This document shows, piece by piece, positions 1,212-52,266 of a stretch of 64,000 nt of DNA. The stretch lies in the NCBI GenBank assembly GCA_964410905.1, contig CAYPIR010000005.1, positions 33,938 through 97,937 of the forward strand, read 5' to 3'. Under the pieces are notes generated by a model, which saw only the letters and a list, made by a program, of their open reading frames with translations, did not search any database and was not told the origin of the DNA. Origin of the DNA: an uncultured bacterium (GTDB lineage: Bacteria > Omnitrophota > Omnitrophia > Omnitrophales > Aquincolibacteriaceae). Made by a program: the position numbers and the translations under genes. Every line of letters starts with the position of its first letter. Position 1 is the stretch's first letter.

Positions 1212-4200
1212 TTATGATTTTTTTGCCATCATGTAATAAAAGACGGGAACGGCACTGCGCGAAAGAATGGTCGAAGCAATTTCTCCGGCCATTAAAGCAA
1301 CAGCCAAGCCCTGAAAGATCGGATCGAACAGGATCACGGCTGCTCCGACCACAACCGCCGCCGCAGTCAAAAGCATCGGTCTGAACCGTTGCGCGCCCGC
1401 CTCAATGACCGCTTCTTCAAGCGGCATGCCATCGGCACGTTTCAATTCGATGAAATCCACCAGAATAATGGAATTGCGAACCACAATCCCGGCTCCCGCG
1501 ATCATGCCGATCATGGAAGTCGCAGAAAAGAATACGCCTCCGAGCCAGTGCGCGGGCAAAATACCGATCAACGTAAGCGGGATCGGAAGCATGATAATCC
1601 ACGGCGTTTTAAACGATTGGAACCATCCCACCACGAGAACATAGATAAGAAGAAGTACAAACGCAAATGCCATTCCCAGATCACGGAATACTTCAAAGGT
1701 AATTTGCCACTCCCCGTCCCACTTGAGAGTCCAACGGTCCATCGTTTGAGGCTGGCCGTTGAACAGTTGATCAAGCGTCTTCTGATCTTCGTGATTTTCC
1801 GGTATCGGCATCTTCGCAATATCCTTTTTGAGCTTCAGGATTGCATAAACCGGGCTCTCAAATTTACCCTCCACATCCGCAATTACATAAGAGACTCGCA
1901 TAAGATTCTTATGGTAGATCGCACGATCTTTGAACCCATCCTGAATATCCACAAGGTCTTTAATGGGGATAGGATTTCCATAGCGGGAAAGAAGTGTCAT
2001 ATTAAGCACAGCATCCAGCGTCTTCCGTTTCCCCTCAGGCAACCTCACAAGGATCTCGACCGGCTCATATTCACCGGAGAGATGAGCAAGATCCACGGCT
2101 TTTCCTCCGATTGCGGTCGTAATGGCCTCCGCGATATGGGTCACTGGAATGCCGTTCAGAGAAGCCTTTTGAGTGTTCACTTTCAGACTCGCCAGCTTTT
2201 CCTTAGCCTGAACATAGGTATCGATGTCCGTAATATCGTGATCTTCTGAAAGCATTTTTTCGATTTGAGCGGCAAGCCTATTTTGTCCTTCCGTACTCGG
2301 ACCATAGATTTCAAGCACCAAAGTTGAAAGCACCGGAGGCCCCGGCGGGACCTCGGCTATCTGTATGCGACCACCGTATTTCCCAACGATTTCGTGAATT
2401 TTCGGTCGAACGGCCTTGGCAATGTCATGACTCTGTCGTTTCCGCTGGTGTTTCCCCGCGAGATTCACCTGGAGATCTGCTTGATAAGGTTTCGATCGCA
2501 GAAAATAATGGCGCACAAGACCGTTAAAATTGTAGGGAGCTGCGGTTCCAACATACATTTCGATATCCTTAACCTCAGGAACTGTCGCTAAATAATCCGC
2601 AATCTCCGCGATGACTTGCTGAGTTTTGGCCTTGGGAGTTCCTTCAGGCATATTGAGAACCACCTGGAATTCATTTTTATTATCAAACGGGAGCATTTTC
2701 ATACGGACAAGCTTGAGCGGCACCAGCATCACCACCGTAAATAACAAGATCCCAAGTGCCCACAGAAATTTTTTACGAATCTTCGGATTATGAATCAAAG
2801 GATTCATATATGACCGATAAAGACGCGTCAGAAAGTCTTCTCTTTCTCCTTCATGATGGACCTTGAGTTTGCCCTGGGTAAATGCCTGTCCTAGAATTTG
2901 ATAGGCTGCCCACGGCGTCGCCACAAACGCCACAAACATCGAAAACATCATCGCCGCGCTGGCACCAACCGGAATCGGCCGCATGTAAGGTCCCATGAGA
3001 CCGCGAACAAAAGCCATAGGCAAAATCGCCGCAATTACCGTAAGCGTCGCAAGGATCAAGGGACTTCGGACTTCGTTCACGGCCTCGATCGTAACATCTA
3101 AGATGTTCTTGCCCTTGTTTTCCGGCAAGCGAAGGTGTCGGACAATGTTCTCCACATCCACGATTGGGTCATCGACCAAAATACCGATTGAAAAGATCAA
3201 AGCGAAAAGCGTGATACGGTTTAATGTGAATCCCAGAAAATAAAAAGTCGCGAGAGTAAGCGCTAGAGTCATCGGAATAGCGATCGCTACAACGCCCGCT
3301 TCCCGACTCCCGAGCGACCAGGCAATCAAGAGACTGACGCCGAATACCGCGATTCCCATATGAAACAGAAGCTCATCGGATTTTTCTTTGGCCGTTTCAC
3401 CGTAGTCGCGTGTCACGGTCATTTGAACATCTCTGGGAAGCACGGCTTCGGGTATTTTCTTGATCGTATTGAGGATTACATCTGACAGATGGGCCGCGTT
3501 TGCGCCCTTGCGCTTGGAAATGGCCAGAGTTACCGCTTCGAAAGGCCCCTTCTTTTGAGCCTTCGCAGCTGGCCCAAAAAGGATTTGCGTCGAGCGTTCT
3601 TCCTGATCAGGACCATCCAAAATCTGCGCGATGTCTTTAAGCATCACGATATTGCCGGCATTCACTCCAACCACAAGATTTTCCAAGTCAGACTTTGTTT
3701 TAAAAAAAGAGTCCGCTTCTACCGATTTCAATGCCGGTTCGTTTTCTAAATGTCCGGCACCTTGTTTCACATTTGCTGCGCGTATCAATTGTCCGATCTC
3801 TAGAGGATTTAAAAGCCGTTCTTTTAATTTCTCTTCGTCAAAAAAGACCTGGAATTGCCGTTTGCGACCTCCGGTGATAAGAGTTTCCGAAACCTCAGGA
3901 ATCGCATTCACGATGTTTTGAAGATTTGCCACCGTCTTGCGTAACGCCACGGGGTCCTGTTTCTCACTGTGGAATGTGAGCGTAAGAATAGGAACATCAT
4001 CAATCGAACGAACTTTTAGAAGCGGTTGCGTCGCGCCCAGAGGCAGAAAATCCAGATTAGAATAAACCTTGGTGTAAAGTTTGATCAGACTTTTTTCGAC
4101 ATCCTCCCCCACTTTGAACCGGACAATGATCAATGCGCCTTCAGGCTCGATCGTGGAATAGATGTATTCCACGCCCGGAATCTCCCAAAGCTTTCTCTCC

Positions 4201-4424
4201 CCAAGATTCACGATCCTCTGCTCTACTTCTTTGGAATCCGCACCAGGGTAAGATACGAAAATATCGAACATTGGCACCGAGATCTGAGGTTCTTCTTCCC
4301 GAGGAAGATTTATGATCGCAAAAAGGCCGATGATGAACGATGCGGCGATGATAAGGGGCGTGATCTTCGACTTCGCGAAGTAGCTGACGATGCCGCTGAG
4401 CAAGTCAGAATGATGTGTTTTCAT
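1212..4424 (-). CDS. RND efflux permease, heavy-metal-efflux (CzcA/CusA-like) subfamily, 1070 aa
   Basis: N-terminal TM followed by a large periplasmic loop. The conserved TM4 region ...AIAIPMTLALTLATFYFLGFTLNRITLFALIFSIGILVDDPIVDVENIVRHL aligns to CusA/CzcA. It has 12-TM RND size and architecture, and a 4-nt overlap with the upstream TolC gene. Confidence 0.85.
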   Translation of the reverse strand: MKTHHSDLLSGIVSYFAKSKITPLIIAASFIIGLFAIINLPREEEPQISVPMFDIFVSYPGADSKEVEQRIVNLGERKLWEIPGVEYIYSTIEPEGALIIVRFKVGEDVEKSLIKLYTKVYSNLDFLPLGATQPLLKVRSIDDVPILTLTFHSEKQDPVALRKTVANLQNIVNAIPEVSETLITGGRKRQFQVFFDEEKLKERLLNPLEIGQLIRAANVKQGAGHLENEPALKSVEADSFFKTKSDLENLVVGVNAGNIVMLKDIAQILDGPDQEERSTQILFGPAAKAQKKGPFEAVTLAISKRKGANAAHLSDVILNTIKKIPEAVLPRDVQMTVTRDYGETAKEKSDELLFHMGIAVFGVSLLIAWSLGSREAGVVAIAIPMTLALTLATFYFLGFTLNRITLFALIFSIGILVDDPIVDVENIVRHLRLPENKGKNILDVTIEAVNEVRSPLILATLTVIAAILPMAFVRGLMGPYMRPIPVGASAAMMFSMFVAFVATPWAAYQILGQAFTQGKLKVHHEGEREDFLTRLYRSYMNPLIHNPKIRKKFLWALGILLFTVVMLVPLKLVRMKMLPFDNKNEFQVVLNMPEGTPKAKTQQVIAEIADYLATVPEVKDIEMYVGTAAPYNFNGLVRHYFLRSKPYQADLQVNLAGKHQRKRQSHDIAKAVRPKIHEIVGKYGGRIQIAEVPPGPPVLSTLVLEIYGPSTEGQNRLAAQIEKMLSEDHDITDIDTYVQAKEKLASLKVNTQKASLNGIPVTHIAEAITTAIGGKAVDLAHLSGEYEPVEILVRLPEGKRKTLDAVLNMTLLSRYGNPIPIKDLVDIQDGFKDRAIYHKNLMRVSYVIADVEGKFESPVYAILKLKKDIAKMPIPENHEDQKTLDQLFNGQPQTMDRWTLKWDGEWQITFEVFRDLGMAFAFVLLLIYVLVVGWFQSFKTPWIIMLPIPLTLIGILPAHWLGGVFFSATSMIGMIAGAGIVVRNSIILVDFIELKRADGMPLEEAVIEAGAQRFRPMLLTAAAVVVGAAVILFDPIFQGLAVALMAGEIASTILSRSAVPVFYYMMAKKS

Positions 4425-5881
4425 GATGCCCTACCTTTCAAGCGGGTATTCACCAAATGAATTCCTTTTTCATCTAACTGTCCCGAAAGAAAAAGTAACT
4501 TGGCGTACTCCACTTCCAAGCCGAAAAGCACCTGTTCAAATTCCGTTGTCGTGATAAGGTTTGCTCGGCGTATCTCGAGAAGATCCGCGATGGATTTGCG
4601 TCCTTCTTGATAAAGTTTAGCGGTCAGGTCACTCGCCTGCTCGGCATCCTTAGAAGCCTGCTTCAATACCGGAAGATCCATGATAACGGTTTCAAACCGC
4701 GTCAATTCATCGGCAAGGTTTTTGGCAATCTCATCACGAAGCACCTGACGATCCGCCTTCAATTCTTCATAACGATGTTTGGCATTCTTGATACGACCCG
4801 GAAGGGTTGGCTCAAAAAGGTCAATGGTTCCTTTGAATCCCACCGTATAGTCCCAACCGCTCGTGTGCCAATCAGGGCTATGCTCATTAAAACTTCCGAA
4901 ACCATAAAATTTCGGAAGAAAGGAAGTCTTCTGCCGAAGGCTCTCAATACGCTGGGCGTCTATTATTTGATCCATGGCCGCAAGATCTTTACGCTCCTGA
5001 TAGGCCTTTGCGATCCAAGCGCGAAGCTCGCCTTTGTCCTGTACATATTCTGGCAATTTTCCAACCGGCTCCCACGTCAATTCCAGATCTTCGCCCATGA
5101 GAATATTCATGAACATTCTGGAGTTTTTCAACATGGCTTGGGCTTTGTTTCTCTCGCGTTCAATTCCGGCAGCAGTAACCTTCGCAGCGTAAAAATCCGC
5201 TCCAAGAATCAGACCCTTTTGATTTAAATCTTCGGCTTGTTTTAGATCTTTGTCGCTTTGATCTTTCATCGTCGCAGTGATAGCGAGAACTTCTTTTGCA
5301 AGCAGAATTCTGAGATAACTCTCAAGGGTCACGATCCCGGCTTCCATCTCGGTAAAGTCCGCTTCAAGGTTCGCAGACTTCACAAGTCGGCGAGCAGAAC
5401 GGATCTTGGAGATCGTATTGAAGGAGTCAAAAAGCAGCATCTCCCCTTCCAATCCGAAGTGATAGTCTGTGCGATGGTTGGGATTGTTAAGCTCGTTAAC
5501 TGCGAAATTAGCTTGTGTGAATTTGTTCTGCTGGAGGAGCATGCCGAAGACGCCTACGGGATCATTCGTCGTCGTCATCGAACTCACGCCCTGAACGTGG
5601 GGAAAAAGATCGGCGATAGCGATATTACGACCGGCCTTCGCTTGTTCAAGTTGCTCGTATCTTTTCTTTAAAGCGGGGTAATGCGCTAAAACTTTTTGGT
5701 AACAATCAAGAAATGTCAGATTATCCAGATGAGCGGGAGCTTGGAGTGCGATTTCTTCAGCAAACACAAACTGCCCCGCCAAAAATACGAACGCAAAGAA
5801 AACCGATAGTGTTTTTTTTATAGACATTGAAATCATCTTAGGTTGTTCTCCCTGGCTTGAAAACAGGTTTTTAGACCTCAC
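4421..5881 (-). CDS. TolC-family outer membrane efflux protein (OEP)
   Basis: 486 aa with a signal peptide, two OEP repeats rich in coiled-coil helices, and a TolC-like size. It overlaps arsM upstream and the RND gene downstream by 4 nt each. Confidence 0.8.
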   Translation of the reverse strand: MRSKNLFSSQGEQPKMISMSIKKTLSVFFAFVFLAGQFVFAEEIALQAPAHLDNLTFLDCYQKVLAHYPALKKRYEQLEQAKAGRNIAIADLFPHVQGVSSMTTTNDPVGVFGMLLQQNKFTQANFAVNELNNPNHRTDYHFGLEGEMLLFDSFNTISKIRSARRLVKSANLEADFTEMEAGIVTLESYLRILLAKEVLAITATMKDQSDKDLKQAEDLNQKGLILGADFYAAKVTAAGIERERNKAQAMLKNSRMFMNILMGEDLELTWEPVGKLPEYVQDKGELRAWIAKAYQERKDLAAMDQIIDAQRIESLRQKTSFLPKFYGFGSFNEHSPDWHTSGWDYTVGFKGTIDLFEPTLPGRIKNAKHRYEELKADRQVLRDEIAKNLADELTRFETVIMDLPVLKQASKDAEQASDLTAKLYQEGRKSIADLLEIRRANLITTTEFEQVLFGLEVEYAKLLFLSGQLDEKGIHLVNTRLKGRAS

Positions 5882-6717
5882 CGAACAATTCTTTTTTCCG
5901 CGCTTACTTTGATGCTGGCAATGGAATGTTCGATCTTTTTCAAATCCTCTTGGTTTACAATAGGACTATTTTTAATAACCTTGGCTGTTGCATCGTTGGA
6001 CATCGCTTTAATCGGATAAAACGTCTCATTTACTATTTTGATCGTACTGAAACCAGCATCCTTGATCAAATGCAGATAATCCTTCTTGAAAATTGCGCCG
6101 GCGAGACAGCCTACATAAGCTTCTATAGATCGCTTAATAGTTTGGGGTAATTCTCTTATCAGAACCAAATCGGATACCATCAATTGTCCCCCCGCCTTCA
6201 ACACCCTGAACGCTTCTTCAAATACGCTTTTCTTATCTGGCGAAAGATTGATAACACAATTTGAAATAATCATATCTATCGAACTGTTTTCAATAGGAAG
6301 GTTTTCGATTTCGCCTAAACGAAACTCCACATTGGAATATCCTCCTTTTTTGGCGTTTGCTTTGGCTCTTTCGATCATCTCTGCTGTCATATCAACGCCG
6401 ATAACACGTCCTGTCTTTCCGACTTTTTTCGCCGCAAGAAAAACATCGAATCCCGCGCCACTCCCCAAATCCAACACCACGTCGCCTTCCTTTAACGATG
6501 CCAAGGCAACAGGATTACCGCAACCAAGCCCCAGGTTAGAACCTTCTGGAACAGCATCTATTTCATCCGCACTGTAACCCACGCTCTTGCTTATATCTTG
6601 AACAAGGTTTTTGCTACCGCAACACGAACTCGTAGGACAACAAGAACTACCGTTTTGAGCAATTTTGGCATAACCTTCTCGAACAATTTTTTTAATCTCT
6701 TTTTGTCCTCTTGCCAT
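5878..6717 (-). CDS. arsM: Arsenite S-adenosylmethionine methyltransferase
   Basis: Strong match along the whole protein to ArsM: IVREGYAKIA..SSCC, LGCGNPVALASL, the SAM motif VLDLGSGAGFDV, ISNCVINLSPDK, EAFRVLKAGGQLMVSDLV and YVGCLAGA. The As(III)-binding cysteines are conserved. Confidence 0.85.
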   Translation of the reverse strand: MARGQKEIKKIVREGYAKIAQNGSSCCPTSSCCGSKNLVQDISKSVGYSADEIDAVPEGSNLGLGCGNPVALASLKEGDVVLDLGSGAGFDVFLAAKKVGKTGRVIGVDMTAEMIERAKANAKKGGYSNVEFRLGEIENLPIENSSIDMIISNCVINLSPDKKSVFEEAFRVLKAGGQLMVSDLVLIRELPQTIKRSIEAYVGCLAGAIFKKDYLHLIKDAGFSTIKIVNETFYPIKAMSNDATAKVIKNSPIVNQEDLKKIEHSIASIKVSAEKRIVR

Positions 6718-9518: not shown

Positions 9519-10430
9519 TTAAGCGTTGTCTTTTTTCTTAACCGGTTTTTTTGTTTTTACTTTAACTTCCTCGTCAGCGCCTGCCACCGCAAGAATCTTT
9601 GGATCAACTTTCTTCTCAATCACTTCTTCTTCCAAAACAACCTCATCGTCAGAAACCTCTTCAGCGTCCGCAACCGCTGCCGTCGCTTCGGCTTCCTCTT
9701 TTTTATTCGTAGCAATCTTTTTATATTCCTTGCGTCCTTCGGCAACAACCTCGGAAATAACGGAAGCAAAAAGTTTAATCGCCTTAATCGCGTCATCATT
9801 TCCGGGAAGAGGAAAATCGATAATATCAGGATTGGCATTGGTATCCAGAAGCGCTACGACAGGGATACCAAGTTTACGGGCTTCGGCAACCGCAATATTT
9901 TCAAGTTCCGCGTCAATGACAAACACCGCGCCGGGAAGACGTTTCATTTCGCGAATGCCAGAAAGATTCTTTATAAGTTTTTCGCGTTCCTTTTTTAACG
10001 AACCGATTTCTTTTTTGGTAATAAATTGAAAACTGCCGTCTTTTTCCATTTCATCAATAGAATCCAACTTCTTAACGGATTTACGAATGGTTTCAAAATT
10101 GGTGAGCATTCCGCCAAGCCAACGCTGATTAACATAAGGCATTTCGCACGCTTCAGCAGATTCTTTTATTACAAGCTGTGCTTGTTTCTTTGTCCCAACG
10201 AATAAAACTTCCTTGCCTTCGATTGCAATTTGCTTGATAAACTCCAATGCTTTTTCTAAAGCGGCAAGCGTTAATTCAAGATTAATAATATAAATACCGT
10301 TGCGTTCGCCGAAAATATATTTTTTCATTTTCGGATTCCAACGCTGAGTTTGATGACCAAAGTGAACGCCGGCTTCGAGTAACTGTTTAATGGTAACCTG
10401 AGACAAGATTAAATCCTTTCGTGGTAACAC
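9519..10430 (-). CDS. rpsB: 30S ribosomal protein S2 with a ~60-aa acidic/lysine-rich C-terminal extension
   Basis: Begins LSQVTIKQLLEAGVHFGHQTQRWNPKMKKYIFGERNGIYIINL. The tail ...EEVSDDEVVLEEEVIEKKVDP...KKPVKKKDNA lies beyond the conserved S2 core. Confidence 0.95.
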   Translation of the reverse strand: MLPRKDLILSQVTIKQLLEAGVHFGHQTQRWNPKMKKYIFGERNGIYIINLELTLAALEKALEFIKQIAIEGKEVLFVGTKKQAQLVIKESAEACEMPYVNQRWLGGMLTNFETIRKSVKKLDSIDEMEKDGSFQFITKKEIGSLKKEREKLIKNLSGIREMKRLPGAVFVIDAELENIAVAEARKLGIPVVALLDTNANPDIIDFPLPGNDDAIKAIKLFASVISEVVAEGRKEYKKIATNKKEEAEATAAVADAEEVSDDEVVLEEEVIEKKVDPKILAVAGADEEVKVKTKKPVKKKDNA

Positions 10431-10676
10431 AAGAATAAGCGACTAATGTCCAAATGAGCACCGGGAAATTCCGGAGGGTTCAGTATCGTGTCCCTCCCTT
10501 TCCCTTTCGCTCGGAGGGTTCGCCTATCTTCCAACTACTGCAGAACTAATACTGCGGAGAAGCTCTAATGAGGCTCTTTAAAAAGTTGGCGCGACATTAT
10601 ATCTAAAAACTTTGTTGAAACAAGTTTTTTAATGTTTTTTATGCGCTGATAATCGACTCGCCATTATTGTAAAAGT

Positions 10677-10906
10677 CAATAATTTCGTAGACAGACATGA
10701 GTCACAAAGATCGTGGTCATATGCAGCCGGTCGTGAAGCCCTCGCAACCACTGTCGAAGTTCTTTGCGAACCTTAGAATCGAGAGATCCGAAAGGTTCGT
10801 CCAACAACAAAACTTTAGGTTCAATCGCAAGGGCTCGAGCCAAAGCCACGCGCTGTCGTTGGCCACCTGAAAGCTGAGACGGGTACCGCGGCGCGAGACC
10901 ATCCAG
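10677..10906 (-). pseudogene. cysA: Remnant of sulfate/thiosulfate ABC transporter ATP-binding protein CysA: only ~75 codons of the signature/Walker-B region survive
   Basis: The frame reads [74 protein letters not shown] and then VCLRNY*. The Walker A/Q-loop N-terminal ~130 aa and the C-terminal ~150 aa (D-loop, H-loop, TOBE domain) are absent. The upstream end is fused out of frame to the cysW 3' end. Confidence 0.7.
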
Positions 10907-11810
10907 ATGACTTCCTTTTTAGCGCGCCACTCGATCCATTGCTTAAGGACAAGAGTTACAAACGCCAGAAGCATCAGTATCGAGGCAACGGCGAACGCAG
11001 CCGTAAAATTGTATTCGTTATAAAGAATCTCAACATGAAGCGGGATCGTATTCGTTAACCCCCGGATATGCCCCGATACTACCGATACGGCTCCAAACTC
11101 CCCCATCGCTCGAGCATTGCAGAGGATCACACCATAGAGAAGTCCCCATTTGATATTAGGAAGCGTCACTCGCCAAAACGTCTTCCACCCACTCGCACCA
11201 AGCGTCACTGCCGCATACTCTTCCTCATTCCCCTGAGACTGCATGAGTGGAATGAGCTCACGAGCGACAAAAGGAAACGTCACGAAAAGTGTTACTAGAA
11301 TGATCCCTGGTACTGAAAAAATAATTTTGATGTTATGCTCCCCTAGCCAATGTCCCAAGGTGCCCTGCGCACCAAAGAGCAGTACGAATATCAGACCTGA
11401 GATCACGGGCGAAACAGAAAAAGGAAGATCGATTAACGTAATTAAGAATTTCTTCCCCCAAAAATCAAATTTTGTAATCGCCAAGAAGCCGCTAGCCCGA
11501 ATAAGAGATTCAGCGGAACACTTGCGATGGCCACGATCAGCGTCAATCGAATCGCCGAAAGAGCGACCGGATTGGAAAGCGAATGAAGATAAAAGGCAAA
11601 GCCTTTTTTCAGCGCTTGCGTAAGCACCATGGCGATCGGCAGCACAAGAAAGAAGGCAAGAAAAACAAGCGCGGCCGTGATAAGTAAAACACGGATCCAT
11701 CGAGGTTCCGATAAAAATGGGCGCTCGACTACTTTGCCGTCGTCTTCTAATTTTTTACTTACAATGCCAGCCATATTTTCCTCTAAAGGCTTTCGCTTTG
11801 CCGACCCCAA
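10907..11810 (-). pseudogene. cysW: Sulfate ABC transporter permease CysW, disrupted by a -1 frameshift near 11481 and loss of its stop codon (3' deletion into cysA)
   Basis: The N-terminal ORF (11442..11810) reads ...LLFGLAASW, then a wrong frame. CysW continues in another frame (within ORF 10717..11700) as [26 protein letters not shown]...[14 protein letters not shown]...[12 protein letters not shown]. The junction falls in a GG run at + 11481-11482. Confidence 0.7.
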
Positions 11811-12607
11811 GACTGCAGGATATTCAGGGTCAAAAGCATAATAAAAGACACGATTAGCATCACGCCTGCAATCGCAGTCGCACCCGCATAATCGTATTGT
11901 TCAAGTTTGGTCATAATGAGCAACGGTGCGATTTCAGTTTTCATTGGCATATTCCCCGCGATAAAAACAATCGAACCATATTCCCCGAGTGCCCGCGAGA
12001 AGGCCATCGCCGCGCCCGTGAGCAGTGCCGGACTAATCGTCGGCATAATGATCTTTAAAAAAATCTGCCAACGGTTCGCGCCAAGGCTTGACGCCGCTTC
12101 CTCGACTTCATTTTCGATGTTTTGAAGCAGCGGTTCCACCGTCCTCACCACGAATGGCAAACCGATAAAAATCAACGCAATCGTGATCCCAAACGGTGAA
12201 AAAGAACTTTTGATGCCTATCGCATATAGTTGCTTTCCCACCCATCCATTTTGCGAATAAAGCGCGGTGAGTGCGATACCAGCCACCGCAGTCGGTAACG
12301 CGAACAAAAAATCCACAAAAGCATCCACCAGCTTTTTCCCGTGAAATTCATAACGCACTAGAACCCACGCCACCAAAAGACCAAAAAAAGCATTGATCAA
12401 AGCACTAACGAACGATGTAGTGAAACTCAACCGCAAAGCCGCAAGAGTCCGAGGTGCAGCAATGGCCTGCAAAAAATGCCCCCAGCCAAGTCCAAGCGCT
12501 TTTAAAAAGAGCGTGGACAGAGGGATAAGGACGATTACGCTCAAATAAAAAAGCGTAAACCCCATGGAGATCCCAAACTCCGGTAACGCGCTGTAACTTT
12601 TAAGTTT
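11783..12607 (-). CDS. cysT: Sulfate ABC transporter permease CysT (CysU); apparently intact
   Basis: ...LPEFGISMGFTLFYLSVIVLIPLS...DFLFALPTAVAGIALTALYS...EAASSLGANRWQ... aligns to CysT across its length. The start is probably TTG at 12607, 4 nt after GGAGGG. No ATG lies between sbp and the conserved N-terminus, so the start is uncertain. Confidence 0.7.
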   Translation of the reverse strand, partial: KLKSYSALPEFGISMGFTLFYLSVIVLIPLSTLFLKALGLGWGHFLQAIAAPRTLAALRLSFTTSFVSALINAFFGLLVAWVLVRYEFHGKKLVDAFVDFLFALPTAVAGIALTALYSQNGWVGKQLYAIGIKSSFSPFGITIALIFIGLPFVVRTVEPLLQNIENEVEEAASSLGANRWQIFLKIIMPTISPALLTGAAMAFSRALGEYGSIVFIAGNMPMKTEIAPLLIMTKLEQYDYAGATAIAGVMLIVSFIMLLTLNILQSWGRQSESL

Positions 12608-12669
12608 CAAATTCCCTCCGTCAAAACAAGGGACGGTTTTCTTTGTGAGAGCCGTCCTCGTTGATTTAA

Positions 12670-13687
12670 TTAACTTGCTTCGTAAATCTGATCGAAAATC
12701 CCCGCATCGGCAAAATGTTTCTTTTGCGCCTTGTCCCATCCTTCGAAATCGGCAATCGTGACCAGCTCGATCTTTGGAAATTGAGTCTGATACTTCGCCG
12801 CGATGGCCTGCGACCGCGGCCGGTAATAATTCTGCGCAATGATCTCCTGGTCTTCTTCTGTGTACAAGAATTCCAGATAGGTCTTTGCACCCTCTTCAGT
12901 TCCGTGCTTGGCAACGATCTTATCAACGACTGTCACTGGCGGTTCGACCAAAATACTGAGCGACAGAAAAATGATCTCGAATTGATCCTCCCCGAGTTCA
13001 TTGATTACTAGGAATGCTTCATTCTCCCAAGCGAGCAAGACATCTCCGATCCCCCGTTCAACGAACGTCGTCGTGGAACCGCGCGCGCCCGTATCCAGCA
13101 CAACTACGTTTTTAAAGAGCTGCTTGATGAATTCCTTCGCCTTCGTTTCATCGTTCGCATTCTTTTTCAAAGCATACGCCCAAGCCGCGAGATAGTTCCA
13201 GCGCGCGCCGCCAGAAGTCTTAGGATTCGGCGTCACGATCTCGATACCCGGCTTGATCAGATCGTCTCAATCCTTAATTCCTTTCGGGTTTCCCTTTTTC
13301 ACAAGGAACACGATCGTGGAAGTGTATGGCGAGCTGTTGTTGGGAAGTTTTGTTTGCCAGTCTTTGAGATCAATCCCGCTTTTTGATAGAGCTGGTCTAC
13401 GTCATAAGCGAGCGCAATCGTTGCATGTCCGCGTCAAGCCCGTCAATGATCGCGCGGGCCTGCTTGCCAGACCCTCCGTAGGACTGCTGGATCGTGACGG
13501 TTTCCCCTGTTTTTTCTTTCCATTGCTTCGCGAACACTTCATTAATCTTTTGATACAGTTCACGCGTCGAATCGTACGAAACATTGAGAATCGCTGTGTC
13601 CTTACCTCTCTTCGCTTGGACAGCTGATGGAGGCCAAGAAATAACACTTAAAATTGAAAGAATCACTGCTAATAATCGATTACGCAT
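12670..13687 (-). pseudogene. sbp: Sulfate-binding protein Sbp/CysP, disrupted by a frameshift near 13419-13432 and an in-frame TGA at 13267-13269 where a conserved Trp is expected
   Basis: The N-terminal ORF has a signal peptide and ...[53 protein letters not shown], then a wrong frame. The correct frame resumes as [78 protein letters not shown]... and runs to the C-terminus ...HFADAGIFDQIYEAS. All parts align to E. coli Sbp. Confidence 0.75.
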
Positions 13688-13838
13688 AAAAAATTTTCCT
13701 TACAAACTTTTAAAATACAACTTGAGCGTGGCTGATCCCATCGCTTATCTCTTTAATAGCGTCATTCACACTATTTTTTTGAATTTCTGTTGGGGAACCG
13801 TCATTTTTTCCTTCTGAGAATCTGTCGTTAGGAAACGC

Positions 13839-14273
13839 TCAGATCTGATAAGTAAGTTGCCCTTTGCGAAGCCGCACCATCAATTCCTCCAGCGTGACCT
13901 CAAGTTGTTTGCTCAGGGTACAGCTTATATCAGCCCAGATTCCGGAGAAAAGACGACCGGCTTCTGAATCGTTTTTCTTGGAAGAAGGTTTGGGGAACTC
14001 AAGAATTTGGCTATCAACTGCACGAAACACATCCGCCAAGGTAATCCGGGATGGATGTTTTGCAAGTGCATATCCGCCTGCTACACCACGAACCGTTTCA
14101 ACAACCCCTGCATTTTTTAGGCGCAAAAGCAATTGCACCAAAAACTTCCCAGGAATTTGCTGGGTCCTCGCAATCAGCTCCAAAGGCACTGGTCTGTCAC
14201 TTTCACTGCGCAGAGCTAGTTCCAGAACAGCTTTGACCGCGTATTCAATTTTTGCCGGCAACCTCATAGCCAC
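13839..14273 (-). CDS. Rrf2-family transcriptional regulator, CymR-like
   Basis: Motifs YAVKAVLELALR...LIARTQQIPGKFLVQLLLRLKNAGVVETVRGVAGGYALAK form an Rrf2 wHTH. It has a single Cys, so no Fe-S ligands, like CymR. Confidence 0.85.
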   Translation of the reverse strand: MAMRLPAKIEYAVKAVLELALRSESDRPVPLELIARTQQIPGKFLVQLLLRLKNAGVVETVRGVAGGYALAKHPSRITLADVFRAVDSQILEFPKPSSKKNDSEAGRLFSGIWADISCTLSKQLEVTLEELMVRLRKGQLTYQI

Positions 14274-14313
14274 TCCTTTTTAAAATTTATGTCTAACAAT
14301 TTAAATATAACTA

Positions 14314-14334
14314 ACTTGATTATATTTGTCAAGT
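14314..14334. promoter_or_regulatory. Inverted repeat ACTTGA-N9-TCAAGT in the divergent promoter region between rrf2 and the PLP enzyme gene; candidate operator
   Basis: Read directly: acttgattatatttgtcaagt. The surrounding 160-bp intergenic region is very AT-rich. Confidence 0.3.
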
Positions 14335-14433
14335 GTTAATTCCTATGTTAGAATACTTTTATTGTATATTCGACAAGGAGCACAGTAGCATGCCCCGCTT
14401 ACTCAACTCTCAAAATCAGTCAGAAAGGCTTTT

Positions 14434-15570
14434 ATGGACATCCGAACCAAATCAGTCCTCACGGGGACCGCAAAAGATTCTCAATACAATTCCGTGATTA
14501 CCCCTATTTATCCGACATCGACTTTCCGCTTTGAAGAACTCGGAAAGCACAAGGGATACGATTACACTCGCAGTGGCAATCCGACACGGTCGGCACTGGA
14601 AGAGAACATTGCAGCCCTCGAAGGCGGTATTGGAGCGAGGGCCACTGCCACCGGCATGGCCGCCATCACTGTCGTCATGTTCCTTTTGAAACCCGGCGAT
14701 CATGTAATCACGGGAAATGACATTTACGGCGGCACCTATCGTTTGTTTAAAGATATTTTTTCAAAGCGCGGCATATTATTTTCTTTCATCAACATGATGA
14801 ACCACGCAGAGATTAAAAATTTCATCCGAAAGGAAACCAGGATGATCTGGATCGAAACGCCGTCCAATCCCCTGCTGCATATCGTGGATCTAAAGACAGT
14901 AATGGGAATCGCCAAACGCAACGGTCTTCTTATCGCTTGCGACAACACATTTCTTTCTCCTTATTTTCAGAGACCTCTGGAATTTGGAGCTGATATCGTG
15001 GTTCACTCCACAACCAAATATCTCAACGGGCATAGCGATGTGGTTGGCGGGGCTATCGTCTACAATAACAAAAAAATTGGAGAGCAAATCCAGCTTTTCG
15101 TCAACACTCTTGGAGTGAGTCAGGCCCCGTTCGATTCATGGCTTGTTCTTCGAGGAGTTAAAACCTTGCCGTACCGGATGGAAGCTCATCAGCAAAACGC
15201 TTTCAGAATCGCATCATTCCTCGAAAAACATCCTGCCGTGAAGAAAGTTTATTTTACGGGGCTCAAAAGCCATCCTCAGCAGGCTCTTATCAAGAAACAA
15301 ATGACCGGTTGGGGTGGCATGCTCGCTTTTGAGCTTAATACTAAAAAGGTTTCACTCAAAAATTTTTTCAGAAAGGTAAAACTTTTTCAGGTCGCCGAAT
15401 CGCTCGGTGGCGTAGAGTCTTTGATCGAGCATCCTTGGAGCATGAGCCACGTTTCCATGGGACCGGAAGGTTTGAAACTCTCCGGCATCACAAAGGAAAC
15501 GATTCGCATTTCGATAGGGATTGAATGCTCTGACGACCTGATTGCGGATTTAAAAAAAGCGTTAGGTTAA
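14434..15570 (+). CDS. Cys/Met-metabolism PLP-dependent enzyme (cystathionine gamma-synthase/gamma-lyase/beta-lyase family)
   Basis: 378 aa containing ...YTRSGNPTR..LE..IAALEGG...TKYLNGHSDVVGG... with the PLP-lysine in the TKY motif. Typical of the MetB/MetC/MccB family. Confidence 0.85.
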   Translation: MDIRTKSVLTGTAKDSQYNSVITPIYPTSTFRFEELGKHKGYDYTRSGNPTRSALEENIAALEGGIGARATATGMAAITVVMFLLKPGDHVITGNDIYGGTYRLFKDIFSKRGILFSFINMMNHAEIKNFIRKETRMIWIETPSNPLLHIVDLKTVMGIAKRNGLLIACDNTFLSPYFQRPLEFGADIVVHSTTKYLNGHSDVVGGAIVYNNKKIGEQIQLFVNTLGVSQAPFDSWLVLRGVKTLPYRMEAHQQNAFRIASFLEKHPAVKKVYFTGLKSHPQQALIKKQMTGWGGMLAFELNTKKVSLKNFFRKVKLFQVAESLGGVESLIEHPWSMSHVSMGPEGLKLSGITKETIRISIGIECSDDLIADLKKALG

Positions 15571-20004: not shown

Positions 20005-20946
20005 TTATGATTGCGATAAAACGGTTAAAGCATCAAGAGCCTTAAAATCCGAAATTGCTCCGATTGAAATCACTTCGAGATCGGGCTGGCATTTGCGAGC
20101 CAACCCTTTTAACACTTTTCCGGGACCAAGTTCCAAATATGTCGATATTCCAGTCTCTTTAGCGGAAGCAAGAGTTTCAACCCAGCGGACAGAGCTTGTT
20201 AATTGCCGCGCTAAAAGTTTGCGAATCTCATCCGGATTCGATTCGATTTTCGCCGTAACATTAGGAATAAAGATACACTCGGGAGCTTTAATAGGCGTAT
20301 TCGCTAACGCCTCTTCAAGTTTTGTTTTTGCGTCATTCATTAAAGAAGAATGAAAAGCGCCGCCGACTTTGAGCGGCATAGCGCGTTTCGCGCCTTTTGC
20401 AGTTGCCAATTGGCAAGCTTTTTCTATAGAAGAAACCGTTCCAGATAAAACCGTTTGATCCGGCGCATTAAGATTCGCGACTTCCGATCCGGACTCTTTT
20501 GCTATAGCCGTGCACTCTTCAAGCGATAACCCCATAATAAACGCCATTGTTCCAGGATTGTTTTTTGCCGCCGCGTCCATCGACTCAGCGCGAATTTGGA
20601 CTAATTTTAACGCGTCTTCAAACGAAATCGCATTTGATGCCGTAAGCGCGGTAAATTCTCCAAGACTCAACCCTGCGACAAAAGAAGGCTTTAAGTCAGA
20701 AATTTTTTCTCTGACAGACGCAAGCACGGCAAGACTTGTCACAAGAATGCCGGTTTGCGCGTATAAAGTTCGGGTAAGCTGTTCTTCTGTTCCGGAAAAA
20801 CAAATTTCACTAATGGAATAGCCTAAAATCTCATCCGCTTTTTGATAAATTTGCTTCGCGGCAGGACTTTGCTCAAAAAGATCTTTTCCCATGCCAACAA
20901 ATTGAGAACCTTGACCGGGAAATAAAAAGCCAATCTGTTTAGTCAT
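20005..20946 (-). CDS. fabD: Malonyl-CoA:ACP transacylase
   Basis: Motifs FLFPGQGSQFVGMG and GLSLGEF (active-site Ser). Confidence 0.9.
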   Translation of the reverse strand: MTKQIGFLFPGQGSQFVGMGKDLFEQSPAAKQIYQKADEILGYSISEICFSGTEEQLTRTLYAQTGILVTSLAVLASVREKISDLKPSFVAGLSLGEFTALTASNAISFEDALKLVQIRAESMDAAAKNNPGTMAFIMGLSLEECTAIAKESGSEVANLNAPDQTVLSGTVSSIEKACQLATAKGAKRAMPLKVGGAFHSSLMNDAKTKLEEALANTPIKAPECIFIPNVTAKIESNPDEIRKLLARQLTSSVRWVETLASAKETGISTYLELGPGKVLKGLARKCQPDLEVISIGAISDFKALDALTVLSQS

Positions 20947-39159: not shown

Positions 39160-39887
39160 TAGTTGGTGTCCCTAAAGTTTTTTATTGGATAATAATTTGC
39201 CATTTCGTTTCCGACAAACTGGCAGGCATCTTTTCCTGAGAGTTTCCAGTGAGTTGGGCACATAGAAAGCACTTCGATAAACGAAAACCCACGGCCGTTT
39301 ATTTGATTTTGAAAGCCTTTGTGTATTGCTTGCTTCGCCCGTTGAACTTGTATGGCATCACAAACTGCCACCCGCTCAATAAAAACAGGGCGCGCGAGCG
39401 TGTCAAAAATTTCGCAAATGCGGAGCGGCGCTCCGGTAGACGCGGCAATTCTGCCGTCCGGCGTTGTGATTGTTTTTTGTCCAATAAGAGTTGTCGGCGC
39501 CATTTGCCCGCCTGTCATTCCGTAAACCGCGTTGTTAATAAAAATCAGAGTTATATTTTCTCCGCGGTTAGCGCAATGAATTGTTTCGGCTAAACCAATT
39601 GAAAGCAAATCTCCGTCTCCGCCATATCCAAAAACAATATTGTCAGGACGGGAACGTTTAATACCTGTCGCGACCGCGGGAATTCGTCCGTGCGGACATT
39701 CAATAATGTCGCAGTTAAAATAATCATAAAGCAAAACAGCGCAGCCGACAGGCGCCGTGCCGATAATTTTTTCTCTTATACCAAGTTCATCAATTACATC
39801 CCCTATAATGCGCTGAACGATTCCATGCCCGCACGCGGGACAGTAATGCATTTTTACAGGACGAATTGTTCTAGTTTCAACGCTCAT
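39159..39887 (-). CDS. 2-oxoacid:ferredoxin oxidoreductase, beta (TPP-binding) subunit
   Basis: Motifs YCPACGHG and TPP-binding GDG. Confidence 0.85.
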   Translation of the reverse strand: MSVETRTIRPVKMHYCPACGHGIVQRIIGDVIDELGIREKIIGTAPVGCAVLLYDYFNCDIIECPHGRIPAVATGIKRSRPDNIVFGYGGDGDLLSIGLAETIHCANRGENITLIFINNAVYGMTGGQMAPTTLIGQKTITTPDGRIAASTGAPLRICEIFDTLARPVFIERVAVCDAIQVQRAKQAIHKGFQNQINGRGFSFIEVLSMCPTHWKLSGKDACQFVGNEMANYYPIKNFRDTN

Positions 39888-40963
39888 TATTTTGCGATTT
39901 CTCTAATTTTACTTAAGACTTCTTCGGGACGGGGATACCACCCTCCGCCGCGTCCTAAGAATTCTATTTTTGGGTCAACATTAGTGGTAGGAAGACGAGA
40001 AAGACGAACATCTTCTATCATCTGCCCTTCGCTCATTTCAATTATCAAAAGTTTTTTGCAATGCGAAGCAATTTTTCTAAGTTCTTCGGACGGGAACGGC
40101 CAAAGCGTTATGGGACGGAACAAACCCACTTTTATTCCCTTTTCGCGCGCCTGTTTAATTGCCCAATAAGAAATTCTCGCAGGCGTTCCATAAGCGATCA
40201 CGCAAATTTCCGCATCATCAACGTAGCGAGTTTCATAAAGGCTTAATTCTTTTGTGATCTTAGCGTATTTTTCTTGAAGCTCCCGATTCTTCTGCTCCAG
40301 CGCGTCTTTTTCTTGAAGATAAAGTGTTCTTATTACGTTAGGCTCTCGGTCTTTGCAGCCTGTTAATGCCCAAGACTTTTTTATATAAATATTTTCCTTC
40401 ACGGGTTTAAGTTCTATTGCCTCCGCCATTTGTCCCAAAATCCCATCGGCCAAAATCATAGTCGGATTTTTATATTTGTCGGCGAGATCAAACGCCTTAA
40501 TGGTCAAGTCATACATTTCTTGAACCGACCAGGGAGCTAAAACAATTAGCCGATAATCGCCATGACCTCCGCCGCGTGTCGCTTGAAAATAATCTGCTTG
40601 CGAACCTTGAATATTTCCAAGACCTGGACCTCCGCGCATAATGTTTGCGATAACACAAGGGACTTGAGCGGCGGCAATATAAGACAACGCCTCTTGCATC
40701 AAGCTAATACCGGGACTCGAAGAAGAAGTCATTGCCCGAACACCTGTTGCTGCCGCACCAAAAACCATATTTACCGCGGCAAGCTCAGACTCCGCCTGAA
40801 CAAAAACACCGCCAGCCTGAGGAAGTTTGGTCGCAAGGTATTCGCTAACTTCGTTTTGCGGCGTAATAGGATACCCCGAATAAAAACGGCAACCAGCGCG
40901 CACTGCCGCTTCCGACATCGCCACGTTGCCCATTAATAATGATTTTTCGATTTGGGAAGACAT
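39887..40963 (-). CDS. 2-oxoacid:ferredoxin oxidoreductase, alpha subunit
   Basis: 358 aa. Begins MGNVAMSEAAVRAGCRFYSGYPITP. Confidence 0.85.
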   Translation of the reverse strand: MSSQIEKSLLMGNVAMSEAAVRAGCRFYSGYPITPQNEVSEYLATKLPQAGGVFVQAESELAAVNMVFGAAATGVRAMTSSSSPGISLMQEALSYIAAAQVPCVIANIMRGGPGLGNIQGSQADYFQATRGGGHGDYRLIVLAPWSVQEMYDLTIKAFDLADKYKNPTMILADGILGQMAEAIELKPVKENIYIKKSWALTGCKDREPNVIRTLYLQEKDALEQKNRELQEKYAKITKELSLYETRYVDDAEICVIAYGTPARISYWAIKQAREKGIKVGLFRPITLWPFPSEELRKIASHCKKLLIIEMSEGQMIEDVRLSRLPTTNVDPKIEFLGRGGGWYPRPEEVLSKIREIAK

Positions 40964-48347: not shown

Positions 48348-49712
48348 TTATTCCTTATAAACGCAAACACGGTTACGGCCTTCTTCTTTTGCTCGATACA
48401 TTGACACATCGGCTTTGCGAATAAGTTCGGCGGTGATTTTTTTAAATTGTTGTTCGGATTCTTGTATCATAAAGTCATCAAAAATCGCAATACCTTGGCT
48501 CACAGTTACTTTTGTTTTTACATTGTAAAAACTAAAACTGTGTCGGGCGATAGTTGAGCGGATACGTTCAGACACCTCTGAAGCATCGTCAATTTTTGTT
48601 TCCGGCATTATCACAACAAACTCTTCTCCGCCATAACGTCCTACTAAATCCATTTTACGGAGGCTTTGTTTGAGAAGATGTGCTACTTCTTTTATGGTCG
48701 CGTCACCGGCAATATGTCCGAAGTCGTCATTATATCTTTTGAAATGGTCGATGTCCAACATTAACACAGCAAGAGGGCGCTTAAAACGCAGACTTCGTCG
48801 AAGCTCTTCTTCAAAACGTTCCAAGAAATGTCTGCGCGTCCAAACTTGTGTAAGTTCATCAATAATAGCAAGTTCACGGACAGTTTCATAAAGACGAATT
48901 TTTTTAATTAAAAGAACTAAATAAGCACACAAAACTTCAACTTGCGCAAAATCTTCTTCCGCGATTCCCCGTATCGAAAAACTTGCCACTATGGATCCGT
49001 TGTCTTTTATGGGGAAACAGTAGGAATCATTTTTTTTAATTTGCGAATTGCTTTCCTTTAGAGAAGAAAACTGTTCGGTTTCCTCCTCAGAGAGAACACG
49101 CGTCTCAATCGAAACTCCATCGTTTTCCATAATATAAAACTTTGCTTGTTTTGCAGACGCGTCAAACTCTGACGGATACAAAATTATTTGCATTTCTTTA
49201 AACTGAAGATTAACTCGAATTTTTTTTAGGAGGAATTCTGAAAGAGTCAAAAAATCCATACATTCGCTAAAATCACGCGCTATCTCAAAAAGATTTACCA
49301 AACTGGAAACTTGTTCTTCGAGGTGACGCAAACTTTGCATTCTTACTTGATATTTAGCCTGAAAATCGTTAAGTTTTTTTTGGACTATTGCTTCTGAGTC
49401 CAAAACACGAAATTGCAATTTTTTCAACTCCCAGTGATACAACAAAAGAGCCGAGGCTATCCCGCTTTGAAGAAAGAAAAGTATCAAAATCCTAATTGCC
49501 GGCTGTTTATAAAAAAAGAATGAGTGCAATCCAACCCAGATTAGTCCGCTCAATGTAAAAAATATCCACGCTCTCTCTTTTAAAAAGTAATAAACCGGGA
49601 AAACGCAAATCGTCGACATTATGTAGTAATAAAGAGAAATTTCTTTTGAAATATAAACGGTAAGTAAAATGGAGGCTAAAAATGCAAAAAACGCTAGGAA
49701 GCGGCGGCGCAT
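48348..49712 (-). CDS. Membrane-anchored diguanylate cyclase (TM, sensory region, GGDEF)
   Basis: GGEEF active site RYGGEEF and DIDHFKRYND. The start is set at ATG 49712 (MRRRF...), preceded by GGGAGG. The track start at 49742 is a TTG. Confidence 0.8.
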   Translation of the reverse strand: MRRRFLAFFAFLASILLTVYISKEISLYYYIMSTICVFPVYYFLKERAWIFFTLSGLIWVGLHSFFFYKQPAIRILILFFLQSGIASALLLYHWELKKLQFRVLDSEAIVQKKLNDFQAKYQVRMQSLRHLEEQVSSLVNLFEIARDFSECMDFLTLSEFLLKKIRVNLQFKEMQIILYPSEFDASAKQAKFYIMENDGVSIETRVLSEEETEQFSSLKESNSQIKKNDSYCFPIKDNGSIVASFSIRGIAEEDFAQVEVLCAYLVLLIKKIRLYETVRELAIIDELTQVWTRRHFLERFEEELRRSLRFKRPLAVLMLDIDHFKRYNDDFGHIAGDATIKEVAHLLKQSLRKMDLVGRYGGEEFVVIMPETKIDDASEVSERIRSTIARHSFSFYNVKTKVTVSQGIAIFDDFMIQESEQQFKKITAELIRKADVSMYRAKEEGRNRVCVYKE

Positions 49713-51156: not shown

Positions 51157-52266
51157 TCACGAAATAGCAACGCCTGTTTGAGGATCAAAAAAATGAGCTT
51201 TGCTCATATCAAACACGACCTGAAGATCCTGATTGGCGCTAGCGGTATCTTGATTGGAAACTCTGACAACAAAATCATTGCTTCCGCTTGTTAGATAAAG
51301 AAAAATTTCCGATCCCATCGGTTCAACCATATCCACAGTGGCTGATATAGTAAATTCAGGACGAGCATCCTGCGCGAAAATTTTGTCATAAATATCTTCC
51401 GGGCGAATCCCCATCGTGAGAGCCTGCCCTTTAAACTGCGCTATACGGGAATAAAAATGCGGCAAAATTCTTAATTTAATATTCTTATCCTGAAAATAAT
51501 AATCACCGCCCTCGGAAAGAACTGTTCCTTTTAAAAAATTCATCGGTGGCGAACCAATAAACTCAGCGACAAATTTATTTTTGGGACGTTCATAAAGATT
51601 GACCGGGTCGGCAACTTGTTGAACTATGCCATGATGCATTACCACTATCCTGTCGCCTAGCGTCAACGCTTCGACTTGATCATGAGTAACATAAATCATC
51701 GTTGCCAGCAAACGGTTATGCAGTTTTTGAATCTCCATGCGCATCTGCACGCGCAGTTTCGCGTCAAGATTGCTCAATGGTTCATCAAACAAAAAAACCT
51801 TGGGTTTTCTAACAATGGCGCGTCCCACCGCGACTCTTTGGCGTTCTCCGCCGGAAAGTTCTTTAGGACGACGTTTCAGCATTTCCATAGTAAGCCCCAA
51901 AATCTCCGCCGCTTCGTGAACGCGGCGATCAATTTCATTTGCTGGATAACGGCGAAGTTTGAGACCAAACGCTAAGTTTTCATAAACTGTCATATGTGGA
52001 TAAAGCGCATAATTTTGAAAGACCATGGCAATATCGCGATTTTTAGCGGGCGTATTATTTACCAGCGAGTTTTCTATAAAAATTTCACCTTCGCTAATTT
52101 CCTCAAGTCCCGCGACCATACGAAGAGTTGTGGATTTTCCGCATCCGGAAGGGCCGACTAAAACAACAAATTCTTTATCCGCGATTTCAAGATTTACGTT
52201 GTTAACGGCCAAGTCGTTTCCGTCCTTATAACGCTTCGACACATTTTTCAAAATAACGTTGGCCAA
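51157..52266 (-). CDS. ABC transporter ATP-binding protein, MalK/UgpC/MsmX family; no cognate permease in the window
   Basis: Walker A GPSGCGKST, signature LSGGERQRV, and a C-terminal TOBE regulatory domain. Confidence 0.85.
   Translation of the reverse strand: MANVILKNVSKRYKDGNDLAVNNVNLEIADKEFVVLVGPSGCGKSTTLRMVAGLEEISEGEIFIENSLVNNTPAKNRDIAMVFQNYALYPHMTVYENLAFGLKLRRYPANEIDRRVHEAAEILGLTMEMLKRRPKELSGGERQRVAVGRAIVRKPKVFLFDEPLSNLDAKLRVQMRMEIQKLHNRLLATMIYVTHDQVEALTLGDRIVVMHHGIVQQVADPVNLYERPKNKFVAEFIGSPPMNFLKGTVLSEGGDYYFQDKNIKLRILPHFYSRIAQFKGQALTMGIRPEDIYDKIFAQDARPEFTISATVDMVEPMGSEIFLYLTSGSNDFVVRVSNQDTASANQDLQVVFDMSKAHFFDPQTGVAIS

Follow-up and report, generated by a model that had tools for sequence, protein, structure and literature searches.

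A probable non-functional remnant of a sulfate-uptake locus in an uncultured Omnitrophota bacterium

A decayed sulfate-uptake locus

Comparison with the intact loci of Candidatus Omnitrophota relatives identified positions 10696-13804 (minus strand) of the window, that is, of the whole 64-kb stretch of DNA analysed here, as what is left of a sulfate-uptake locus. Judging from the sequence, we are highly confident that this region would be a non-functional remnant of a locus formerly composed of genes for an Rrf2-family regulator, a DUF2292 protein, an outer-membrane porin, and the transporter components Sbp, CysT, CysW and CysA. At least eight lesions were mapped as disabling mutations against the intact orthologues of close relatives (the loci L087 and L089), namely four 1-nt deletions, one nonsense change and three larger deletions, and the alignment placed every one of them at base level. 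Of the whole locus, cysT (275 aa) and the gene for the Rrf2 regulator alone remain intact. As read from these lesions, normal-length Sbp, CysW and CysA could not be made, and the transporter could not work despite the intact cysT because its ATPase would be without the Walker A motif. The locus is an ordinary pseudogenised operon, a form of gene decay that is already familiar, and no new mechanism is involved.

Intact orthologous loci in relatives

Gene identities were assigned by NCBIfam profile matches, which were obtained for all four components, sbp, cysT, cysW and cysA. The remnants match their intact orthologues with 76% identity at the DNA level and 78-97% at the protein level over about 3 kb, which rules out a chance resemblance. 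Intact orthologous operons were found in L087/L088, L089/L090, L091 and L092/L093; L087, the closest relative, is a Candidatus Omnitrophota metagenome-assembled genome (MAG; GCA_041674705.1, contig JBAYVF010000021.1), and L089/L090, L091 and L092/L093 are metagenome contigs. Their usual gene order is Rrf2, DUF2292, porin, sbp, cysT, cysW and cysA, commonly followed by cysH, cysD, cysNC, sir and cobA, and the intact Sbp, CysT, CysW and CysA proteins have 338, 275, 299 and 354 aa, respectively. The loci L087 and L089-L093 share their gene order with the window at about 76% DNA identity and with 80-88% identity in CysT; whereas they keep the porin and full-length proteins, the window has lost or broken every gene of the locus except cysT and the Rrf2 gene. 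The earlier note had recognised an sbp-cysT-cysW-cysA operon hit by several independent mutations, a reading borne out by the relatives, which carry the same four genes intact. Its account of the decay was nevertheless incomplete, as DUF2292 and the porin gene were also struck.

The sulfate/thiosulfate ABC importer of Escherichia coli and Salmonella consists of Sbp/CysP, CysT, CysW and CysA (TC 3.A.1.6 family). The same four components occur in the same order here, and the fragments match NF008022/TIGR00971, TIGR02139, TIGR02140 and TIGR00968/NF008105. Unlike in that importer, three of the four window genes are disabled, with the ATPase down to 70 codons, and the Omnitrophota locus adds an upstream Rrf2 regulator, a DUF2292 gene and a dedicated porin.

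Lesions in sbp, cysW and cysA

The sbp pseudogene (12670..13687, minus strand) was delimited by alignment to relatives, and NF008022/TIGR00971 matched both of its fragments. Besides the frameshift near 13425 noted earlier, which is a 1-nt deletion between positions 13425 and 13424, a second 1-nt deletion was found at 13362/13361. The nonsense change that had also been described was confirmed: a TGA at 13269-13267 stands in place of a Trp codon which is TGG in every relative. As a result, the longest sbp open reading frames (ORFs) encode 96 and 188 aa, compared to the 338 aa of the proteins in relatives.

The cysW pseudogene (10906..11774, minus strand) was delimited by alignment and matched TIGR02140 at positions 1-83 and 74-260 in two different frames; it shares 93.8% identity with residues 99-290 of the L089 CysW (tblastn). 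As had been proposed, it carries a -1 frameshift, a 1-nt deletion at 11481/11480 in the context TTGG-CG, and has lost its stop codon to a 3' deletion. This deletion, of 402 bp in comparison with both L087 and L089, removes the last ~9 codons of cysW, its stop codon and codons 1-125 of cysA, and fuses cysW to codon 126 of cysA at a junction around 10906/10905. Of the two permeases, CysT is whole, and CysW is split and without its C-terminus.

What remains of cysA (~10696..10905, minus strand), according to alignment, tblastn and NCBIfam searches, are codons 126-195 of 354. These 70 codons, slightly fewer than the ~75 estimated previously, share 97% identity with residues 126-195 of the L089 CysA (tblastn), match positions 120-189 of TIGR00968/NF008105 (126-195 of 362 in NF008105), and lie in a different frame from the cysW reading frame that continues into them. 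The fragment keeps the LSGGQ signature, Walker B and the H-loop His, so the earlier description of an LSGGQ/Walker-B region with both termini deleted stands. The Walker A motif and the Q-loop, contained in the 125 lost N-terminal codons, and the C-terminal regulatory domain of 159 codons are deleted; hence the set of motifs of a complete ATPase (Walker A, Q-loop, signature, Walker B, H-loop) is incomplete in the remaining residues 126-195. Homology to cysA ends with codon 195 at 10696, and ~65 nt further on, at ~10630, the conserved region upstream of rpsB begins. The ~65 nt in between (10631..10695, minus strand) had no match in any relative and contain the right-hand junction left by whichever event, deletion or rearrangement, truncated cysA. 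An attempt to follow this 3' deletion through rpsB synteny was not informative: what the nearest rpsB loci (L094-L096) have in common with the window is limited to rpsB-tsf-pyrH-frr and the region just upstream of rpsB, and the gene order farther upstream is not conserved in these relatives.

The Rrf2 regulator, DUF2292 and the lost porin

In relatives, the sulfate-uptake locus is headed by an orthologue of the intact Rrf2-family regulator gene of the window (13839..14273, minus strand; TIGR00738 at full length, 101.2 bits compared to a cut-off of 73.3). Together with the start of DUF2292, this gene shows 73.6% DNA identity between window positions 14339-13734 and positions 6639-7244 of L087. 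A promoter-like TTGACA-17-TATATT site lies upstream of it at 14332-14304. An Rfam search of window positions 10300-14400 gave no match.

Downstream of the regulator, alignment with DUF2292 from L087, L089 and L092 revealed a remnant of about the first 26 of 65 codons (13728..13804, minus strand), with a 1-nt deletion at 13781/13780, beside a run of seven A, and an in-frame 3-nt deletion. A deletion of ~1.7 kb took the remainder of DUF2292 and the entire porin gene, and homology in the window restarts ~35 nt ahead of the sbp ATG. In L087 and L089-L093, the porin gene (~1.5 kb; 486-520 aa) is located between DUF2292 or Rrf2 and sbp, and its product matches Porin_O_P (L087, L091) or Porin_5 (L089, L090, L092, L093). 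It is kept in every relative with the transporter cassette and is absent from the window.

The intact cysT gene

In contrast to its neighbours in the cassette, cysT (11783..12610, minus strand) is intact and encodes 275 aa, matching TIGR02139 over profile positions 2-263 of 265 with 397.6 bits (cut-off 246.1). It starts with TTG, as in L087, and its product is 88% identical to the L087 CysT and 80-88% identical to those of close relatives in general; among the contigs of representative genomes, no match to it exceeded 67% identity. The other remnants carry five small lesions in ~2.2 kb; at that density, the 828-bp cysT would have escaped with a chance of about 0.15, and its intactness may well be fortuitous.

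Timing and course of the decay

Amino-acid changes were compared among lineages. The window sbp has 33 private changes compared to 6-10 in each of four relatives, and its non-synonymous share, N/(N+S), was 0.40 on the window branch versus 0.20-0.22 on control branches. This excess of lineage-private changes in sbp was significant relative to cysT and cysW (Fisher p = 5e-6). Neither cysT, which has no excess of non-synonymous change, nor cysW showed a signal of relaxed selection, and cysT, cysW and the cysA fragment retain 86-97% protein identity to relatives with DNA only ~76% identical. Because the excess of amino-acid change is limited to sbp, and because the other three stay this similar with no excess non-synonymous change, we infer that the decay is recent. 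The lack of a relaxed-selection signal in cysT and cysW fits this recency; it is not positive evidence that these two genes are unselected. The first gene freed from selection was probably sbp.

Pseudogenes decay with a deletion bias in bacteria that lose selection on a pathway. The window resembles such decay, since all four frameshifts are 1-nt deletions, the three larger events are all deletions, and insertion lesions were not seen; it differs in that a single locus is affected within 64 kb that are otherwise gene-dense and intact-looking.

Sulfur-assimilation genes and other routes for sulfate

As stated in the earlier note, the cysK gene, the trans-sulfuration enzyme gene and two regulator genes nearby are intact: CysK is full-length, scoring 479.7 bits on TIGR01139 (cut-off 350.95), the matches of the Cys/Met PLP enzyme to its profiles extend over residues 1-377, and both Rrf2 regulators score above the superfamily cut-off. 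The absence of cysDN, cysH and sulfite reductase genes, which the note had predicted, found positional support in that tblastn detected none of cysH, cysD, cysN/cysNC, sir and cobA in the 64-kb window, and in that cysA is cut beside rpsB. In three of the four transporter-bearing relative lineages, cysH, cysD, cysN and sulfite reductase genes directly follow cysA. The truncation of cysA beside rpsB may therefore also have removed cysH, cysD, cysNC, sir and cobA. That one deletion extended from cysA across the assimilation genes is inferred rather than reconstructed, with the order upstream of rpsB unconserved and L087 without cysH after cysA.

Alternatively, the organism might still import and assimilate sulfate by means of another transporter and another cluster elsewhere, so that a spare locus decays with the lifestyle unchanged. 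We consider this unlikely. The window is 64 kb of a genome in which SulP, CysZ, a PiT-type CysP, another ABC copy or cysHDN could lie elsewhere, and the layout varies among relatives: in L174, cysK is directly followed by cysH, cysD and cysNC and the ABC cassette is absent, and L087 has the cassette without cysH, so transporter and reduction genes can sit apart. Against such redundancy, the 64-kb window holds no second copy of a sulfate transporter and no assimilation gene, and a search with CysT returned a single protein type at 100% identity, the next one being at 89%. A search for the CysD of the organism in its sequencing runs points at best weakly in the same direction, as the two best Logan-only candidates (P0121 and P0129), the only two tried, belong to other runs.

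Reality of the lesions

We also considered whether the organism itself has an intact operon, the lesions being due to errors or a chimeric MAG join, as the source is a metagenome assembly and the DUF2292 frameshift at 13781 adjoins the A-run. This is highly improbable. In per-run Logan assemblies of five SRA runs from two accession series (SRR11845623, SRR11845624, SRR11845625, SRR27197510 and SRR27197514), six contigs agreed with the window at 100% identity over 1.5-6.3 kb each, lesion sites included. Those from the first three runs (L083-L085) cover the locus completely or almost completely, those from SRR27197510 (L001) and SRR27197514 (L086) cover portions of it, and three contigs run through the frameshift in cysW, the two cysA junctions and the boundary with rpsB. 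Furthermore, three of the four frameshifts lie outside runs of more than three bases, those in sbp and cysW not being in long homopolymers, and errors would not yield the excess of amino-acid substitutions in sbp. Sequencing or assembly error was therefore rejected, in agreement with the earlier note. As the samples behind the five runs may be related, the identity of their contigs establishes the lesions in that population, fixation in the species being a separate matter.

Expression through recoding, with TGA read as Trp or Sec together with programmed frameshifting, was dismissed as next to impossible: although the sbp TGA falls exactly on a conserved Trp codon, TGA is a true stop here (10 of 41 long ORFs terminate with it, and it is absent in frame from their 15,451 codons, in which all 144 Trp codons are TGG), four separate frame changes would be required, and an ATPase core deleted of 125 N-terminal codons, Walker A included, and of 159 C-terminal codons would not be restorable.

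Discussion

A literature search on the run and assembly accessions found nothing. In a paper on Omnitrophota, assimilatory sulfate reduction appears only in the summary table, in a row apparently for the other phylum treated (PMC8542988).

For annotation, our results mean that the 327-aa ORF at 10717-11700 and the ORFs of 96, 188 and 57 aa are pieces of pseudogenes. Although automated pipelines will match "CysT" and "CysW", metabolic reconstructions should not credit the MAG with sulfate uptake.

With regard to physiology, it is reasonable to read the remnant, as the earlier note did, as belonging to an organism that would no longer import sulfate and would rely on sulfide or organic sulfur. 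If it has given up sulfate assimilation, it could obtain cysteine from sulfide via the intact CysK, or from organic sulfur, which suggests that it lives where reduced sulfur is always available. Further, we tentatively raise the possibility, itself rather doubtful, that this Omnitrophota lineage has just abandoned the whole sulfate route, comprising the porin, the ABC importer and the adjoining cysH, cysD, cysNC and sir, while keeping Rrf2, CysK and the Cys/Met PLP enzyme. If so, the locus would record how a lineage of a phylum in which host-dependent lifestyles are suspected recently turned to sulfide, or to sulfur provided by a host or partner, and a dated, stepwise order of loss, with the binding protein first and the permeases last, would be readable from its sequence. 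The locus offers a small, clean case of pathway loss in an uncultured phylum.

Gene Pieces of a Sulfate Importer Operon

On the minus strand from 13800 to 10600, six-frame translation and the ORF list revealed four transporter genes whose reading frames jump or stop. The sulfate-binding protein gene sbp was split into two pieces (13397-13687 and 12670-13236; positions 18-81 and 142-327 of NCBIfam profile NF008022/TIGR00971), and cysW into two pieces in different frames (11442-11774 and 10717-11478; TIGR02140 positions 1-83 and 74-260). The cysA piece (10676-10918) covered only positions 126-195 of the 362 of NF008105, and cysT (11783-12610) matched TIGR02139 over its full length with 397.6 bits (cut-off 246.1). 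An earlier note on this DNA had likewise recognised all four genes and described the neighbouring cysK, trans-sulfuration enzyme and two regulator genes as intact; in our NCBIfam scan cysK, the 378-aa Cys/Met PLP enzyme and the two Rrf2 regulators were all full-length. Homology places the locus in the classical sulfate/thiosulfate ABC importer family, where it is best regarded as a pseudogenised copy of the operon. A literature search found no paper describing this locus. The spacer between sbp and cysT differs from that of the relatives; within it (12630-12658, minus strand), a 12-bp GC-rich hairpin and then TTGTTTTG resemble a terminator or attenuator inside the operon.

The Intact Locus in Related Omnitrophota

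Searches with the CysT protein returned a single identical match at NCBI, encoded on a 119,935-bp contig, one identical protein from Logan, a collection of per-run SRA assemblies, and then relatives with 80-89% identity annotated as Candidatus Omnitrophota. Gene order in the relatives was Rrf2, DUF2292 (in most), porin (486-520 aa), sbp (337-338 aa), cysT (275 aa), cysW (299 aa) and cysA (354 aa). The Rrf2, DUF2292 and porin genes, intact in these relatives, are Omnitrophota-specific additions to the classical importer operon. In three of the four relative lineages (L089/L090, L091 and L092/L093) sulfate-assimilation genes directly follow cysA: cysH, cysD, cysNC, sulfite reductase and cobA in L089/L090 and L092/L093, and cysD and cysNC only in L091. 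The closest relative (L087, GCA_041674705.1) carries a metal repressor and an RND pump in their place.

Further arrangements were observed in the clade. In L091, CysA (11733-13388) is a 551-aa protein with a C-terminal APS-kinase domain fused on, and the locus adjoins sulfotransferase and glycosyltransferase genes, which together suggest that sulfate uptake is coupled to PAPS supply for sulfation, beyond assimilation alone. Another relative's sulfur locus (L174, 25-7590) comprises Rrf2, O-acetylhomoserine sulfhydrylase, cysK, DUF2061, cysH, cysD and cysNC with no ABC cassette between them, so the transporter block is a variable insert in this clade's sulfur locus. A transposase-like HTH_29/HTH_32/HTH_33 gene and a small ORF lie between DUF2292 and porin in L092 (971-2116), hinting that mobile elements have disturbed the locus within the clade. 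The window's PLP enzyme next to Rrf2 (14434-15570, plus strand) and the 432-aa enzyme in the corresponding place in L089 (4753-6051) share 33% identity and are not orthologues; the window enzyme matches a 377-aa gene about 8 kb downstream of cysA there (20477-20876; 76% DNA identity), so the sulfur locus has been rearranged as well as deleted.

Mapping of the Lesions

DNA alignment of sbp, cysW/cysA and DUF2292 against L087 and L089 resolved eight lesions. DUF2292 carries a 1-nt deletion beside an A-run (13781/13780), and its homology stops at codon ~26 (~13728), resuming ~35 nt before the sbp ATG; about 1.7 kb, including the whole porin gene, has therefore been lost. In sbp, two 1-nt deletions (13425/13424 and 13362/13361) precede a TGG to TGA change (13269-13267). 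cysW has a 1-nt deletion (11481/11480), and a 402-bp deletion joins its codon ~290 to cysA codon 126 (~10906/10905). Homology to cysA stops past the H-loop His, at codon 195 (10696). Since the segment starting ~65 nt further on (10630-10455) shares 76-83% identity with the DNA upstream of rpsB in the nearest relatives (L094-L096), cysA is joined nearly directly to the promoter region of rpsB. No lesion was found in cysT, and all small indels were deletions. Deletion-biased decay of pseudogenes is a well-known process, and the decay is ordinary in kind. The operon decay proposed in the earlier note was thus borne out, with damage extending to DUF2292 and porin; its sbp frameshift at 13425 and TGA codon stand, but the frameshift is not single.

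Recoding of TGA was discarded: among the window's 41 long ORFs, 10 end in TGA and none is interrupted by this codon in frame, and all 144 Trp codons (out of 15,451 codons) are TGG. Sequencing error, which the earlier note had also argued against, is contradicted by separately assembled Logan contigs with 100% identity to the window, from runs SRR11845623 (L083, 7359-13617; L002, 13591-17131), SRR11845625 (L084, 10133-14727), SRR11845624 (L085, 10070-14037), SRR27197510 (L001, 12314-17223) and SRR27197514 (L086, 11674-13190). Three runs covered all the lesions from those in sbp to the join with rpsB, and gene calls on these contigs gave matching pieces of 96, 188, 260 and 327 aa.

Age of the Decay

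Despite a DNA identity to L089 of only ~76%, protein identity remained high (cysA fragment, 97%; CysW C-terminal part, 94%; CysT, 86%; Sbp C-terminal part, 78%), so most of the divergence arose under purifying selection. Private amino-acid changes were counted in the window, L087, L089, L091 and L092, of which L087 and L089 are on short branches; the window had 33 in Sbp (relatives, 6-10), 14 in CysT (1-18) and 10 in CysW (0-22). The Sbp excess was significant against the deep lineages L091 and L092 (Fisher p = 5e-6). Where the relatives establish the ancestral codon, non-synonymous changes made up a fraction N/(N+S) of 0.40 for sbp on the window branch (controls, 0.20-0.22), 0.28 for cysT (0.22-0.30) and 0.11 for cysW (0.24-0.38); sbp differed from cysT plus cysW with p = 0.016. 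From these few sequences we infer that sbp was probably the first gene freed from selection, that the permeases would have followed too recently for a visible signal, and that cysT may be intact by chance, its escape probability being ~0.15 at the observed lesion density.

The rpsB Upstream Element and Other Genes

The non-coding element upstream of rpsB (10455-10630, minus strand) shares 76-83% DNA identity across Omnitrophota relatives (L094, 9776-9954; L095, ~966-1064; L096, 9865-9959). RNAalifold predicted a structure of 25 base pairs around CCCTCC...GGGAGGG...CCCTCCGG, with a conserved promoter-like TTGT-N17-TATAAT site in front of it; covariation is thin, with 2 compensatory pairs among 4 sequences, and Rfam gave no hit at E<=1. 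The element may act as an autoregulatory leader for S2.

Elsewhere on the minus strand, consecutive genes immediately downstream of frr (1212-6717) encode an RND permease, a TolC-like outer-membrane protein and an ArsM-type arsenite methyltransferase (NF008823, 362 bits vs a cut-off of 263), and two neighbouring GGDEF diguanylate cyclase genes with a slight overlap (464 and 481 aa) occupy 48348-51139.

Consequences for Sulfur Metabolism

The ABC importer encoded at this locus cannot function, since its binding protein and ATPase core are missing and CysW is split. Apart from the cysA remnant, the window encodes a single ABC ATPase (51157-52266), which belongs to the UgpC/MalK type, and tblastn with L089 proteins found no cysH, cysD, cysNC, sir or cobA in the 64 kb. 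As the reduction genes directly follow cysA in relatives and cysA is here cut off beside rpsB, one event plausibly removed both the cysA end and these genes; because the genes upstream of rpsB are arranged differently in the nearest relatives available, this event can only be inferred. The finding serves mainly to correct this MAG's annotation and what is concluded about its metabolism. Without proving the physiology, the intact cysK and PLP enzyme genes would agree with cysteine being made from sulfide or organic sulfur, and a 2-oxoacid:ferredoxin oxidoreductase subunit (39887-40963) would agree with the anaerobic, ferredoxin-using lifestyle suggested in the earlier note.
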